Sequence record: MH243438.1
Length of the DNA stretch: 64,000 nucleotides
Reading direction: 5' to 3' (one strand)
From: Escherichia phage vB_EcoM_NBG1
Positions 7,194-12,535 of the stretch are shown here, one piece after another. Made by a program: the position numbers and the translations under genes. Position 1 is the first letter of the stretch. Every line of letters starts with the position of its first letter. The notes under the pieces were generated by a model that was not told the origin of the DNA, ran no database searches, and saw only the letters and a program-made list of their open reading frames with translations.

Positions 7194-8324
7194 TTATGGA
7201 TATGTATAGATGATACCAGTTTCCAAAGCAGTTTTATGGATGATGTATCCATTACGTGATTCTTGAACATCAACTTCCGGATAGTCTTTCATCATCTTCT
7301 GAAGAGTGTAACGATGCAGGTAGTATTTACTATCTGGATCTTCAGTTTTCCAATCTTTACCTTCTTCAGTCATTTTTTGGATTTCATCCATAACCCACCA
7401 TCCGCACCAGATGTAAGCTGAAGTACGATGTGGAAGAGGATGAACATAAGGTAATTCACCTTCTGGTTCCGGAGCAACTTTATCAGTTACCTGAACTTGA
7501 CCTTCTGCTGTAATAGTTTTGCTATCGTAATCAGTTGCAGTAATAGTTGCAGTAACTTCAATAGTTTGACTTCCAATAGACGAGGTATCAACGGTATATA
7601 CATTAGTTGACCCTTCTACAGGAGAAGAATCTTTCTTCCATGAATACGCAATTTGCGCTTCTTCTGGAGCATCAGTGACATTAGCGGTAAATGTAGCCGA
7701 AGCATCTTGCTGAACGTTAATAGAAGGAGGAGTCAATGTAACCTGTGGATTCATTGTCTTCTTATTAACCGTTAATGATACTTCATTCGAAGTAACTTCC
7801 TTTGCATCATAATCTGTCGCGGTTACTTGGGCTACACATTTAATTCTTTTTACTCCACTTGCAGTTGGAGTATAGCTAAATGTAGAGTTAGTTTCTCCAC
7901 CAACCTGTGAATCATCTACATACCACTGATACGTAGCAGATGCGCCTGATGGCTGCGAAGCCAAAGCAGCGGTAAATTCAACAGCTGTTCCAATCACTCC
8001 AGCCGCAGGACTAGCAGGAGTTACGGCTAAGGTAGTCGTCTGTGTCTTATTTTGAACTGTGATAGTCGTAGTAATTTCTGCTGTTTCAGCGTCAGTATCA
8101 GGAATAGTATTTGTTGCAACAACTTTAATTGTTTTTGTTCCAGCAGGTCCTTTTAACACGTAATCAAAAGTTTCTGCCGATCCTACTTGAGGAGCATCGT
8201 CTACACTCCATGCATAGGTAATAGTTCCACCTTCAGTTTGACCACTGGGTGCAGCAGTAAACTGCTTAGTCTCATCTATAACTCCAGTAGGTGTTTTAGG
8301 AGTTATATCAACTGTAAAAGCCAT
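7194..8324 (-). CDS. hoc: Highly immunogenic outer capsid protein Hoc
   Basis: 376 aa (same as T4 Hoc); Thr/Ser-rich repeated beta-rich segments consistent with tandem Ig-like domains; terminator hairpin immediately downstream. Confidence 0.9.
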   Translation of the reverse strand: MAFTVDITPKTPTGVIDETKQFTAAPSGQTEGGTITYAWSVDDAPQVGSAETFDYVLKGPAGTKTIKVVATNTIPDTDAETAEITTTITVQNKTQTTTLAVTPASPAAGVIGTAVEFTAALASQPSGASATYQWYVDDSQVGGETNSTFSYTPTASGVKRIKCVAQVTATDYDAKEVTSNEVSLTVNKKTMNPQVTLTPPSINVQQDASATFTANVTDAPEEAQIAYSWKKDSSPVEGSTNVYTVDTSSIGSQTIEVTATITATDYDSKTITAEGQVQVTDKVAPEPEGELPYVHPLPHRTSAYIWCGWWVMDEIQKMTEEGKDWKTEDPDSKYYLHRYTLQKMMKDYPEVDVQESRNGYIIHKTALETGIIYTYP

Positions 8325-8333
8325 AAGTTATCC

Positions 8334-9002
8334 TTATTTTAATGTTACGAAAGAAGAATTACGAGTTTCACGAATTAGAACTGATCCATCGCGATTAATA
8401 TAATAAATTAAGCTAAATAATGTTTGGTGAGCAGAAGCGTGCACAAAACTGGTTGGGCGAGATTTCCAATCTGGGGTTTCGGCTATCCATTGATAAATCC
8501 ACCAAGGAACAGTAACATATCCTGGGCCTTTGCCTAATTTAATGAGTGTAGGACTAAAATTTTCAGGCAGAACAAATTTTACTTCTTTATTTACCTCTGG
8601 CTCAGGTTCTTTTTCAGATTCAACAACCTGAGTAATTGCTTCTTCGAATTTATCATGGTCGAATTCTTTTTCTTGTTCGACAACTTCTAATACTTCAGCT
8701 TGTTCTGTTGGAGAATCAAACAACAGAATAGCTTCTTCTTTAACTTCTTCGTTGGTGAAATTAACACCGTCCACATCATCTGCGGCAGTAATTAAATCGG
8801 TGATAGATAATCCATCAGTTTCAGGTAATGGTTCATCAGCCAGTGCGTTAAGAGCTTCTTCGATATCAATAACAATATTATCGAATGATTTTGTTTTCTT
8901 AACACTAATGCCAAATTGTTCCGCATATTCAAACAGTTTAGCTTTGGCTTCCTTTTTATCAGAAAGAGCACGTAACTCTTCAATATAGTCTTTATCGATC
9001 AT
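8334..9002 (-). CDS. inh: Inhibitor of prohead protease Inh
   Basis: 222 aa acidic protein next to hoc; size and position match T4 Inh. Confidence 0.8.
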   Translation of the reverse strand: MIDKDYIEELRALSDKKEAKAKLFEYAEQFGISVKKTKSFDNIVIDIEEALNALADEPLPETDGLSITDLITAADDVDGVNFTNEEVKEEAILLFDSPTEQAEVLEVVEQEKEFDHDKFEEAITQVVESEKEPEPEVNKEVKFVLPENFSPTLIKLGKGPGYVTVPWWIYQWIAETPDWKSRPTSFVHASAHQTLFSLIYYINRDGSVLIRETRNSSFVTLK

Positions 9003-9015
9003 GATATTTCCTCAT

Positions 9016-9023
9016 TATAAATA
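9016..9023 (+). promoter_or_regulatory. T4-type late promoter (TATAAATA) upstream of segE/uvsW
   Basis: Exact TATAAATA in the inh-segE intergenic region. Confidence 0.5.
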
Positions 9024-9051
9024 TAACTATATTTATTACATGGAAAAGAGT

Positions 9052-9783
9052 ATGTATCACTTTGTTTATGAGACCGTAAATTTAATCAATGGTAAAAAGT
9101 ACATTGGCAAACATTCTACAGAAAATTTAAATGATTCGTATCTAGGGTCAGGTGTTGCCTTAAATCGCGCTATCAAAAAATACGGAGAAGAATCATTTAA
9201 ACGTTCAATAATTAAACAATTTGAAACTTCCGCTGAAGCTTTAGAATACGAAGCTCAGTTAGTAACAGAGGATTTGGTCAAATCTAACGAGTATTATAAT
9301 ATGCGCCAAGGCGGTGAAGGTGGAAGGTATAAGTACACCGAAGCTGATAAGACTAAAATGTCTAATAGTGCTAAAGAACGAATAAAGAGGCTTGGTCATA
9401 ATCTTTTAGGAAAACACAGATCGGAAGAAACAAAAAGAAAACTATCTGAAACAAATAAACGTCGATACTCTGAAGACCCAACATGCCACGGGCGGTATGG
9501 TACAGGAAAGCCAAAGATTGATAAAATTAAAGGTCCTAAAAATCCTACAACTCTAAATAAAATTTGTGTTAACAACGGTAAAGAAAACAGATTTATATCA
9601 GCTGAGGACCCGATGCCTGAAGGATTTGTAAAAGGAATGGTCCAACTTAATAGAAAATCTAGAAAGGGCTGTGAAGTAAAACCTACGACCACCGGCAGAA
9701 TATGGGTAAATAACGGGGCTATAAATAAATTAGTAAATCCGTTATCCATCCCAGATGGATATGTTAAAGGCCGTTTAAGGTAA
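9052..9783 (+). CDS. segE: GIY-YIG homing endonuclease, SegE-like
   Basis: N-terminal MYHFVYETVNLINGKKYIGKH is a GIY-YIG motif; located between inh and uvsW as segE is in T4. Start set at ATG 9052 (purine-rich SD); the ORF is open from 9001, alternative ATG at 9040. Confidence 0.85.
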   Translation: MYHFVYETVNLINGKKYIGKHSTENLNDSYLGSGVALNRAIKKYGEESFKRSIIKQFETSAEALEYEAQLVTEDLVKSNEYYNMRQGGEGGRYKYTEADKTKMSNSAKERIKRLGHNLLGKHRSEETKRKLSETNKRRYSEDPTCHGRYGTGKPKIDKIKGPKNPTTLNKICVNNGKENRFISAEDPMPEGFVKGMVQLNRKSRKGCEVKPTTTGRIWVNNGAINKLVNPLSIPDGYVKGRLR

Positions 9784-9788
9784 TTATT

Positions 9789-11303
9789 ATGACAGATATT
9801 AAAGTACATTTTCATGATTTTAGCCATGTAAGAATTGAATGCGACGAAAGCGTGTTCTATGAATTACGCGACTTTTTTAGCTTTGAAGCCGATGGGTACA
9901 AATTCAACCCGCGTTACAAATATGGGAACTGGGATGGTAGAATTAGACTTTTAGATTACAACCGTTTGTTACCATATGGACTTGTAGGACAAATAAAAAA
10001 GTTCTGTAGCAATATGAGTTATTCTGTATGGATTGACCCTAAAATCTTTGAGACCGAAGACCTTACCAGGGAAGATTTTGACGCATGGCTTTCTAAACAA
10101 GAAATTTATTCAGGCAACGCCAAAATCGAACCACATTGGTATCAAAAAGATGCAGTATATGAAGGACTAGTTAATCGTCGTCGAATTTTAAACCTTCCGA
10201 CATCAGCAGGTAAATCACTAATCCAAGCACTTTTAGCTCGGTATTATCTAGAGAACTATGAAGGTAAAATTCTCATTATCGTCCCTACAACAGCATTGAC
10301 AACCCAGATGGCTAATGATTTTGTTGATTATCGCTTGTTTAGTCATTCGATGATTAAGAAAATTGGCGGTGGTGCTGATAAAGCAGACAAATCTAAAAAC
10401 GACGCTCCAATTATTGTTGGCACATGGCAAACGGTAGTTAAGCAGCCTAAAGAATGGTTCTCTCAGTTCGGTATGATGATGAACGATGAATGCCACTTAG
10501 CAACAGGCAAAAGTATTTCTTCAATCATCGCAGGATTAAATAATTGTATGTTTAAATTCGGTTTATCTGGCTCATTAAGAGACGGAAAGGCCAATGTAAT
10601 GCAGTACGTAGGTATGTTCGGCGAAATCTTCCGTCCTGTTAGCACGTCTAAATTAATGGAAGATGGACAGGTAACTGAGCTTAAGATTAATAGTATTTTC
10701 CTTCGTTATCCAGACGAATTCGCCACCAAATTAAAAGGTAAAACATACCAAGAAGAAGTTAAAATTATTACCGGACTAAAACGACGTACAAAGTGGATTG
10801 CTCAACTTTCAGTCAAATTGGCTAAGAAAGACGAGAACGCCTTTGTAATGTTTAAACACGTTACACACGGTAAAGAAATATTTGAAGCTATTAAAGAGCT
10901 TGGATACGAAAAAGTTTATTACGTATCAGGCGAAGTTGATACTGAAACACGTAACGCGCTTAAAGTCATGGCAGAAAATGGTAAAGGCATTATTATTGTC
11001 GCATCATATGGAGTATTCTCTACCGGTATTTCAGTCAAGAATCTTCATCATGTTATTTTTGCCCATGGTGTTAAATCAAAAATTATCGTACTTCAAACAG
11101 TAGGTCGTGTGCTTCGTAAGCATGGTTCTAAAGCTGTTGCTACAGTTTGGGATCTCATCGATGACGCAGGTGTAAAACCTAAATCATTAAATACTAAAAA
11201 GAAGTATACTCATCTTAATTACTTGTTAAAACACGGTATTGATCGTATCCAACGTTACGCTGATGAGAAATTTAACTATGTAATGAAAACAATTAATTTA
11301 TAA
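9789..11303 (+). CDS. uvsW: UvsW RNA-DNA and DNA-DNA helicase
   Basis: 504 aa; MTDIKVHFHDFSHVRIECDE... and SF2 helicase motifs (LPTSAGKS Walker A, DECH box) match remembered T4 UvsW. Confidence 0.95.
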   Translation: MTDIKVHFHDFSHVRIECDESVFYELRDFFSFEADGYKFNPRYKYGNWDGRIRLLDYNRLLPYGLVGQIKKFCSNMSYSVWIDPKIFETEDLTREDFDAWLSKQEIYSGNAKIEPHWYQKDAVYEGLVNRRRILNLPTSAGKSLIQALLARYYLENYEGKILIIVPTTALTTQMANDFVDYRLFSHSMIKKIGGGADKADKSKNDAPIIVGTWQTVVKQPKEWFSQFGMMMNDECHLATGKSISSIIAGLNNCMFKFGLSGSLRDGKANVMQYVGMFGEIFRPVSTSKLMEDGQVTELKINSIFLRYPDEFATKLKGKTYQEEVKIITGLKRRTKWIAQLSVKLAKKDENAFVMFKHVTHGKEIFEAIKELGYEKVYYVSGEVDTETRNALKVMAENGKGIIIVASYGVFSTGISVKNLHHVIFAHGVKSKIIVLQTVGRVLRKHGSKAVATVWDLIDDAGVKPKSLNTKKKYTHLNYLLKHGIDRIQRYADEKFNYVMKTINL

Positions 11304-11818: not shown

Positions 11819-12043
11819 TTATACAACTCTCATATGCATATCAATGCCCATATCTTTAGAATAAAAATATTCATCAAGATATCCGGCAAATTTTCCTTTA
11901 ATATAAAGGACATCTTCACCACACGGATGGTCTGCCAGGATACGAATATCCTGACGACGTAGACGATACTTTTCCATTAGGAATTTAATTTCAGTTTCAA
12001 ATTCTTCGTCATTATTAAAGGCATCTTCAATTGAATAACGCAT
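11819..12043 (-). CDS. uvsY.-1: UvsY.-1-like protein
   Basis: 74 aa ORF directly downstream of uvsY, stop/start coupled. Confidence 0.65.
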   Translation of the reverse strand: MRYSIEDAFNNDEEFETEIKFLMEKYRLRRQDIRILADHPCGEDVLYIKGKFAGYLDEYFYSKDMGIDMHMRVV

Positions 12044-12456
12044 TATTGCCCCGCTTCAAATTCTCGCATATCCTGGATATGTTTAAGTGCAAAACTACGA
12101 GACTTAACTGCGTCAAGTGCACCACTACAGAACTCAAGTAAAATTCCCCAGTATTGTAAAGTAGTCTCTATTTTAAGCACATCTTTATCTGCAGCCAGGA
12201 CAGTTTTCATTTCAGATTTCTCGTATCGGTCCATACTGAATTCATCACCGTCACCTCGTCCCGAGTAGTAGTCTAATCTTGCTTTTAGAGCAGTTTTCTT
12301 CTGAGTCTCTATACGCAACATTTCTTTACGAATAAATGAGTGCTTACGTAGCCATTTGCTGTATAACTTAACATTATTCGCTGTCTCATATTGCAACTTT
12401 GTTGTATCAATAGCTAAGTCTGCGTCTAACTCTTCCTGTAAATCTTCCAGCTTCAT
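12043..12456 (-). CDS. uvsY: Recombination mediator UvsY
   Basis: 137 aa from internal ATG at 12456; MKLEDLQEEL...LRIETQKKTALKARLDYYSGRGDGDEFSMDRYEKSEMKTVL matches remembered T4 UvsY. The track ORF is extended upstream to 12519. Confidence 0.92.
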   Translation of the reverse strand: MKLEDLQEELDADLAIDTTKLQYETANNVKLYSKWLRKHSFIRKEMLRIETQKKTALKARLDYYSGRGDGDEFSMDRYEKSEMKTVLAADKDVLKIETTLQYWGILLEFCSGALDAVKSRSFALKHIQDMREFEAGQ

Positions 12457-12535
12457 AATATTCTCTCTTTTACTAATAATCTCCCGGCTGTATCGGAAGG
12501 ACCTAAAACCATTATACATAGGTTGCCTTGAAGCA

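Follow-up and report, generated by a model that had tools for sequence, protein, structure and literature searches.

The window analysed here, a 64-kb stretch (64,000 nt) of the genome of Escherichia phage vB_EcoM_NBG1, comes from a Mosigvirus, an RB69/JS09-like T-even phage. Between inh and uvsW, and oriented like uvsW, it carries the gene for a member of the SegE family of GIY-YIG homing endonucleases, placed at the canonical segE locus (Table 1). The frame on the plus strand is open from 9001 to 9783, as the original prediction had it, with in-frame ATG codons at 9001, 9040 and 9052; the peptide quoted from it, YHFVYETVNLINGKKYIGKH, is found as given. The ORF at 9052-9783 is a genuine gene and not a chance frame, and its kind, that of a selfish homing endonuclease gene, is already known and annotated. 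Public databases already list an identical 243-aa protein as "GIY-YIG nuclease family protein", while GenBank labels for the gene vary among "homing endonuclease", "hypothetical protein" and "group I intron endonuclease" (the last of these is wrong).

A 2-kb query around the ORF matches eight Mosigvirus records (JM17, NicPhage, p000y, KAW3E185 and LF82-41 among them) over its full length at 98.3-99.3% identity, and two more carriers match 99% of the same query at 98.9% identity. The gene shows no compositional anomaly, its GC content being 0.358 vs 0.356 for inh and 0.364 for uvsW. A tblastn search of the 64-kb window with the protein yields no paralogue, the gene itself being the sole match.

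Table 1. Features at the inh-uvsW locus of the vB_EcoM_NBG1 window (positions are those of the window).
Feature	Position	Strand	Description and basis
inh (inhibitor of prohead protease), left neighbour, divergent	8334..9002	-	annotations of matching records; homologous gene matches Phage_Inh Pfam families
T4-type late promoter consensus TATAAATA in flank	9016..9023	+	pattern search; putative function, from consensus only
Segment variable among Mosigvirus	9044..9780	+	alignment of occupied and empty sites; present in 10 records, absent from 140
SegE-like GIY-YIG homing endonuclease CDS	9052..9783	+	243 aa and TAA stop; ATG 9052 is the most likely start
GIY-YIG catalytic domain, aa 1-91 (Tyr6, Tyr17, Glu67, Asn83)	9052..9324	+	AlphaFold2 model, Foldseek, profile alignment to 1LN0
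NUMOD3-type helical linker, aa 96-150	9337..9501	+	NUMOD3 profile, domain-wise identities, model helices
Paired small beta-hairpin modules (…VNNG.xN…P.G[FY]VKG…), aa 168-243, presumed DNA-binding	9553..9780	+	alignments, model strands
Second TATAAATA, in endonuclease codons A-I-N-K	9720..9727	+	61 nt upstream of the uvsW ATG; might take over as late promoter of uvsW
Endonuclease-linked patch, predicted target and immunity region	9784..9869	+	uvsW ribosome-binding region and codons 1-27; 15-genome 10-kb alignment
uvsW helicase, right neighbour, with predicted target in its 5' end	9789..11303	+	Pfam UvsW_N (154.6 bits), ResIII, DEAD, Helicase_C; record annotations

Family assignment and catalytic domain

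A Pfam profile scan of the ORF product identifies SegE_GIY-YIG (PF19835) at 30.1 bits (cut-off 25) and GIY-YIG (PF01541) at 25.8 bits (cut-off 22.6; residues 7-75 of the 247-aa query). The protein also matches PHROG 314, "homing endonuclease", at 5.9e-43, and T4 SegE is assigned to the same PHROG. By tblastn, ten phage records encode a protein that is 100% or 99.6% identical; the next matches are from WSPA (52.9%) and Gravdalen (50.6%), and the Tequatrovirus segE genes, including those of AR1, PST and Kha5h, show about 49% identity over about 99% of the query. Alignment with T4 SegE itself, which had been proposed as a check on the assignment, likewise gives about 49% identity across nearly the whole length (about 99%), with an insertion of about 50 aa in the window protein. 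The SegE-type homologues of Tequatrovirus, WSPA and Gravdalen all lie between inh and uvsW. The insertion nucleotide (left junction GG/AAAA) is identical in the window, in T4/AR1 and in the metagenomic contig L023, a Mosigvirus-like variant whose protein has 187 aa as called and 183 aa from MYHFVY.

Searching PDB sequences with the single sequence produces chance matches to Hsp70 fragments only; a 50-sequence profile is needed to reach I-TevI, and these matches are weak (E 0.035 and 0.19). An AlphaFold2 model of the 243-aa protein, built on 50 homologues, has a block-mean pLDDT of 97-98 at residues 1-80 and 90 at 81-90, with low-confidence linkers (pLDDT <50) at 145-167 and 198-213. The top three Foldseek matches of this model in the PDB are all the I-TevI catalytic domain (1MK0, 1LN0; prob 1.00, target TM 0.62-0.63), and besides that domain the PDB yields no match below E=1. 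Profile alignment to 1LN0 pairs Tyr6, Tyr17, Glu67 and Asn83 with Tyr6, Tyr17, Glu75 and Asn90 of I-TevI. The motif tyrosines are modelled on a beta-hairpin, FVY (Tyr6) on strand 2-10 and KYIG (Tyr17) on strand 16-23. All four residues are unchanged across the alignment of 50 homologues; the loss of catalytic GIY-YIG residues, named beforehand as the observation to weigh against the assignment, is not seen.

The original prediction described a textbook module with the tyrosines followed by an arginine and a glutamate. The tyrosines and Glu67 do align with I-TevI, but the arginine indicated (presumably Arg39) is probably not the canonical catalytic one. In the profile alignment I-TevI R27 falls in a 9-residue gap and has no aligned counterpart, and Arg39 is Gln in T4 SegE. 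Lys20 and His21, both nearly invariant in the 50-sequence alignment, and Lys43, which is invariant, are candidate substitutes for the canonical Arg. The lack of an aligned Arg is probably a trait of the SegE family and not decay of the NBG1 copy, since it is shared by the experimentally active T4 SegE.

A mosaic C-terminal region

A long basic DNA-binding region was expected behind the catalytic domain, and residues 92-243 indeed contain 36 Lys and Arg vs 15 Asp and Glu, with a pI of 10.2. The NUMOD3-type linker scores 21.5 bits (cut-off 20.4) when the segment of aa 96-150 is scanned alone, its profile matches the I-TevI DNA-binding domain (1I3J) weakly, and the model places helices at 97-114 and 125-139. 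The strands of the two hairpin modules are modelled at 170-174/179-183 and 217-220/225-228. Residues 212-242 show a match to the C-terminal part of the HNH endonuclease family PHROG 10820. The last 95 residues match no Pfam family even at E<=10, and neither a zinc finger nor a helix-turn-helix is recognised in the window protein.

Identities differ by domain. The catalytic domain (1-95) is 64% identical to that of T4 SegE, 65% to those of WSPA and Gravdalen, and 85% to that of L023. The NUMOD3 region (96-150) is 75% identical in WSPA, 67% in Gravdalen and 65% in L023, and T4 SegE is essentially without it. The double C-terminal module (168-243) is 67% identical to that of T4 SegE; the corresponding values are 36% for WSPA, 36% for Gravdalen and 30% for L023. 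The window protein is thus a domain mosaic, a linker of the WSPA/Gravdalen/L023 type joined to a double C-terminus of the T4 type, and as such an illustration of module shuffling among homing endonucleases.

Start codon and expression signals

The start had been called ambiguous between 9040 and 9052 in a frame open from 9001. Three in-frame ATG codons do exist, but the evidence favours 9052 and assigns 9040 to the flank. When occupied and empty sites are aligned, the flank reads …TATAAATATAACTATATTTATTACATGG and the insertion opens with AAAAGAGTATGTATCAC…. Phages that have no copy of the gene still have the ATG at 9040, and in them it begins a mini-ORF of just three codons (ATGGTAATTTGA); the matching position in T4 reads TCG. 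The MYHFVY start (that is, 9052) is common to the T4 SegE, AR1, WSPA, Gravdalen and L023 copies. Because 9040 is flank sequence, T4 has no ATG there, and all relatives examined start with MYHFVY, the most likely start is 9052. The ATG at 9001 was also rejected: it overlaps the inh start codon, which is on the opposite strand; the TATAAATA at 9016-9023 comes only after it; no Shine-Dalgarno-like sequence precedes it; and starting there would add residues found in no homologue. GenBank records are split between 9040 and 9052; some metagenome gene calls use 9040 (MEKSMYHF…), and the NCBI protein cluster uses 9052.

The late promoter consensus in the flank stands 28 nt before the endonuclease ATG and, in empty sites, 29 nt before the uvsW ATG. 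As for the second, embedded copy, the A-I-N-K codons are conserved, and WSPA, Gravdalen and L023 also have an embedded TATAAATA, which there precedes uvsW by 55-58 nt. T4 segE is described as embedding a promoter for its downstream gene (PMC2988022). The insertion starts just behind the GG in a Shine-Dalgarno-like sequence, and its last four bases are AAGG; both genes therefore keep a purine-rich element 7-8 nt before the ATG. No intrinsic terminator is found in the interval 8900-9900, hence none separates the endonuclease gene from uvsW, and no sigma-70 promoter in the same interval exceeds the shuffled expectation.

Presence, absence and spread among related phages

Comparison of the inh-uvsW junction in phages lacking the gene, another check suggested by the original prediction, reveals a clean empty site. 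A 301-nt empty-junction query is uninterrupted in 140 of 151 Mosigvirus records and split by the insertion in 10 (the one remaining record is truncated). The junctions are precise, the borders of the inserted segment being ambiguous by a 2-nt GG that is found at both. A query from AR1 finds segE of the T4 type in 159 records. Scans of IMG/VR bring in a single further identical copy, two copies of the T4 type and four empty sites of the Tequatrovirus type, and each of these fits the pattern. At about 7% of Mosigvirus records the gene is rare, which is also compatible with a poor spreader or an element being lost.

A 10-kb alignment around the site covers 15 genomes, of which eight are carriers (seven records besides the window) and the other seven lack the gene. 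Within the endonuclease gene pi is 0.0027, vs 0.01-0.03 in the flanks (higher in hoc). The gene contains eight SNPs (six synonymous, two conservative replacements), and every copy examined is intact. Outside the locus, divergence between carriers and non-carriers roughly equals the diversity within each group, and carriers do not form a clade. In the four flank segments compared, carriers are often closest to a non-carrier, as in the pairs JM17-FL18, NicPhage-mar009P5 and LF82-41-Mizar. This pattern is what an element should show after a recent move into unrelated genomic backgrounds.

A silent patch in uvsW linked to the endonuclease

Nine columns of the alignment are fixed between carriers and non-carriers, of which one (9217) is an artefact of gap placement. 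The eight real differences are confined to 46 nt (9788-9833), running from one base before the uvsW ATG through codon 15, a clustering seen in 0 of 200,000 random permutations. All of the fixed coding changes in this interval are synonymous. Near-fixed differences reach 9869. Carriers share a haplotype that begins at the insertion and, on the uvsW side alone, continues to about 9944, as a short co-conversion tract might leave. The left flank shows zero carrier-specific changes in the 15-genome alignment. The non-carrier OLB35 has carrier-type alleles at 9851-9869 and therefore points to recombination between 9833 and 9851.

The empty sites of Mosigvirus and Tequatrovirus (T2, RB32, four IMG/VR contigs) are almost base-for-base alike across TTATTACATGG/TAWTTWGACATGACTGACATTAAAGTACATTTTYATGATTTTAGTCACGTG. 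The GAC before the uvsW ATG has been lost from three occupied alleles matched by insertion point (those of the window type, T4/AR1 and L023), all of which carry GAC>GAT at codon 3 and CAC>CAT at codon 13 of uvsW. The more distant WSPA and Gravdalen alleles have GAT too, with AAT or CAT at the second position.

The site of T4 SegE is reportedly located at the 5' end of uvsW of phage RB30, and T4's own DNA is said to be cut less efficiently. The position of the linked patch matches the published T4 SegE target, uvsW. The patch could represent selected immunity, or else hitch-hiking donor sequence that was co-converted; with eight carriers and seven non-carriers aligned, its linkage and its function are inseparable at such a sample size. 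I-TevI-like CNNNG sequences occur as CATGG at the insertion point and as CATTG in uvsW codons 15-17, and were considered as possible cut motifs. Two later papers that cite Kadyrov et al. 1997 do not give the sequence of the T4 SegE site, and the literature searched yielded no mapping of SegE recognition or immunity determinants in T4 or Mosigvirus.

Proposed mode of action and competing readings

The initial proposal, which placed a free-standing, segE-like homing endonuclease of the GIY-YIG kind between inh and uvsW, is upheld by the Pfam SegE_GIY-YIG match, the structural match to I-TevI, the roughly 49% identity to T4 SegE, the insertion point shared with T4 segE, the sporadic presence and the linked uvsW patch. 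The gene very probably encodes a diverged relative of T4 SegE that is active as a homing endonuclease now or was so very recently. From the sequence we infer cleavage, its exact site, late expression and current mobility, in the following scheme. The gene, placed directly behind the late promoter of uvsW and the Shine-Dalgarno GG of the empty site, would by virtue of that position be expressed late in infection. Homing would take place in co-infection with a related phage having an empty inh/uvsW junction. The basic C-terminal region (NUMOD3 helices and two beta-hairpin modules) would bind a long asymmetric site reaching from the spacer's end into uvsW as far as about codon 15, and the N-terminal GIY-YIG domain would make the double-strand break. 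Recombinational repair off the carrier genome would then bring the gene into the recipient along with a little of the adjoining sequence. The insertion, together with the silent substitutions at 9788-9833, would shield the carrier's uvsW allele from cutting, and expression of uvsW would be kept by read-through and probably also by the embedded late promoter consensus in the last endonuclease codons.

It is unlikely that the endonuclease has instead been domesticated or stranded, no longer homing and retained for the promoter and ribosome-binding context of uvsW, or for marker exclusion or local recombination. Retention of this kind would suit the embedded TATAAATA 61 nt before uvsW, which is conserved in several lineages, and the AAGG at the 3' end of the insertion, which gives uvsW its Shine-Dalgarno-like sequence; it has been argued before that a gene is more readily retained when it embeds a promoter (PMC2988022), and the low frequency (10 of ~150 records) would agree as well. 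However, the ORF is intact in all copies examined, with synonymous and non-synonymous changes at 6:2, and the catalytic residues are kept. The near-zero diversity of the gene in backgrounds 1-3% apart, whose nearest relatives are without it, points to recent horizontal spread and not to long vertical retention.

Repeated precise loss of an ancestral gene, with the uvsW patch as an old divergence of two allele classes, is most improbable: SegE-type genes occupy the locus in four genera (so the association with it is old), and OLB35 has the carrier-type alleles at 9851-9869 expected after loss or adjacent recombination, but an old allele class should match the diversity of its flanks (gene pi is 0.0027 vs 0.01-0.03), the left flank has no carrier-specific difference, and empty junctions alike across Mosigvirus and Tequatrovirus are easier to explain by an empty ancestral site than by numerous exact deletions that arose independently.

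A separate and speculative suggestion, to which we give little credence, concerns specificity in the SegE-type homing endonuclease favoured here. The NUMOD3 linker and the T4-type double module might together confer a target specificity that departs from that of T4 SegE or is broader. The enzyme might then cut the empty junctions of both Mosigvirus and Tequatrovirus, whose target sequences are nearly identical, and in addition the "immunised" alleles that a rival SegE lineage occupies. One insertion point is common to three different SegE variants, and the silent changes in uvsW form a separate set for each; this is compatible with an arms race but is not a demonstration of one. A wider specificity, if true, would mean rival endonucleases competing for one site, and the enzyme could act as an intergeneric exclusion factor.

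The main value of these results is for annotation: the CDS should be taken from 9052, and the gene named as a segE relative at the T4 segE insertion point. The 46-nt silent patch, with the GAC>GAT change at codon 3 and the CAC>CAT change at codon 13, amounts to a concrete prediction of the determinants of SegE recognition and immunity. Close pairs of carrier and non-carrier phages (e.g. JM17 and FL18, from one collection) offer a convenient natural system. The finding leaves current understanding unchanged. A literature search found no paper describing the endonuclease of this Mosigvirus type.

Comparison with known homing endonucleases

T4 SegE is a free-standing GIY-YIG homing endonuclease (Kadyrov et al. 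1997, as cited in PMC2988022 and PMC2330249), and is listed as a proven homing enzyme with uvsW as its target (PMC2988022, table; PMC2330249, text). The window gene shares with it the inh/hoc.1-uvsW locus, the insertion nucleotide, the MYHFVYET… start, PF19835 and PHROG 314. In both, TATAAATA lies 28 nt before the start codon, and the carrier alleles have the silent uvsW changes GAC>GAT and CAC>CAT in common. The window protein has 243 aa, vs 205 aa for T4 SegE, because of the NUMOD3/linker insertion of about 50 residues that T4 SegE does not have; it is also missing the T4 tail KRDSKGKFSKA. The embedded TATAAATA is exact in the window, whereas T4 has AATAAATA there.

The genes of the Serratia phage WSPA (Muldoonvirus), the Erwinia phage Gravdalen (Winklervirus) and contig L023 are like the window gene in their position between inh and uvsW, in a related catalytic domain and in the NUMOD3 region. 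They differ in having a single C-terminal hairpin module, where the window protein has two, and in overlapping the start of uvsW.

I-TevI, from the T4 td intron (1MK0, 1LN0, 1I3J), resembles the window protein in its catalytic fold with the aligned Tyr/Tyr/Glu/Asn and in its modular plan, which consists of an N-terminal nuclease, a flexible NUMOD3-like linker and a C-terminal DNA-binding region. Identity is only about 21%, however, and I-TevI is intron-encoded while the window gene is free-standing. The helix that bears Arg27 and His31 in I-TevI is replaced in the window protein by a loop with an invariant Y-x-G-S-G.

The uvsW start region and the insertion site

In endonuclease-free phages, the spacer of the empty site, which is the uninterrupted junction of inh and uvsW, holds a mini-ORF of three codons (ATG GTA ATT TGA). 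This mini-ORF overlaps the ribosome-binding region of uvsW and ends 2 nt short of the uvsW ATG; insertion of the endonuclease gene turns its ATG into an upstream ATG in frame with the endonuclease.

Within the otherwise invariant carrier haplotype, uvsW codon 9 is the only variable site. It is CAT, CAC or CGC in carriers of the endonuclease gene and TAT or CAT in non-carriers (His, Arg or Tyr), which makes it unusually variable, and it lies centrally in the predicted target. Escherichia phage OLB35 (MH992122.1), a non-carrier, aligns to the window with carrier-type alleles at 9851-9869 and non-carrier alleles at 9788-9833. By the appearance of these uvsW 5' alleles, OLB35 looks like a recombinant; the mixture may be what an earlier conversion tract left behind, or a trace of the endonuclease gene having been lost.

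An identical endonuclease in the same hoc-inh-uvsW context occurs in contig ABOHRG010000079.1 of an assembly labelled Escherichia coli (GCA_033005095.1), presumably phage DNA inside a bacterial assembly. The NCBI protein name carries the tag "[Escherichia coli]" because the sequence was deposited under that label.

Neighboring genes and late-promoter motifs

Pairwise diversity among these Mosigvirus genomes reaches 0.11-0.22 in central hoc, against about 0.02 nearby. Hoc has 376 aa in the window phage and 471-472 aa in Mizar and the E. coli-labelled contig; in NRG-P0074 and OLB35 the gene is represented by split ORFs. The start of uvsY is inconsistently called, as annotated lengths of 414, 471 or 495 nt differ among public records.

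In the window as a whole there are 16 copies of the T4 late-promoter consensus TATAAATA; shuffles give an expectation of 6.3, and none of 100 shuffles reached 16. Such an excess fits a region of late genes.

Positions of features in and around the window
Feature	Position	Strand	Remark
Mini-ORF of empty sites	e.g. 4740-4751 of L011, an empty-site record; equals window 9040-9043 plus flank beyond 9781
hoc	window 7530-8206	minus	central part hypervariable among compared Mosigvirus genomes
uvsY	window 12043-12519	minus	frame open 21 codons upstream of conserved start MKLEDLQEEL
uvsW codon 9	window 9813-9815
SegE-type variant	L023:1980-2543

A second SegE-type variant

At exactly the insertion point of the window gene, the Mosigvirus-like metagenomic contig L023 (Logan contig SRR19777222_29265) carries another SegE-type variant. 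It is shorter, with 187 aa as called or 183 aa counted from MYHFVY. Its stop codon overlaps the uvsW start (TAATG), and the uvsW 5' end of this contig has a set of silent changes of its own. In the 5' part, up to about window position 9450, the DNA of the variant and that of the window gene share about 86% identity; past that point the variant changes to a single-module C-terminus like that of WSPA, the Serratia phage homologue.
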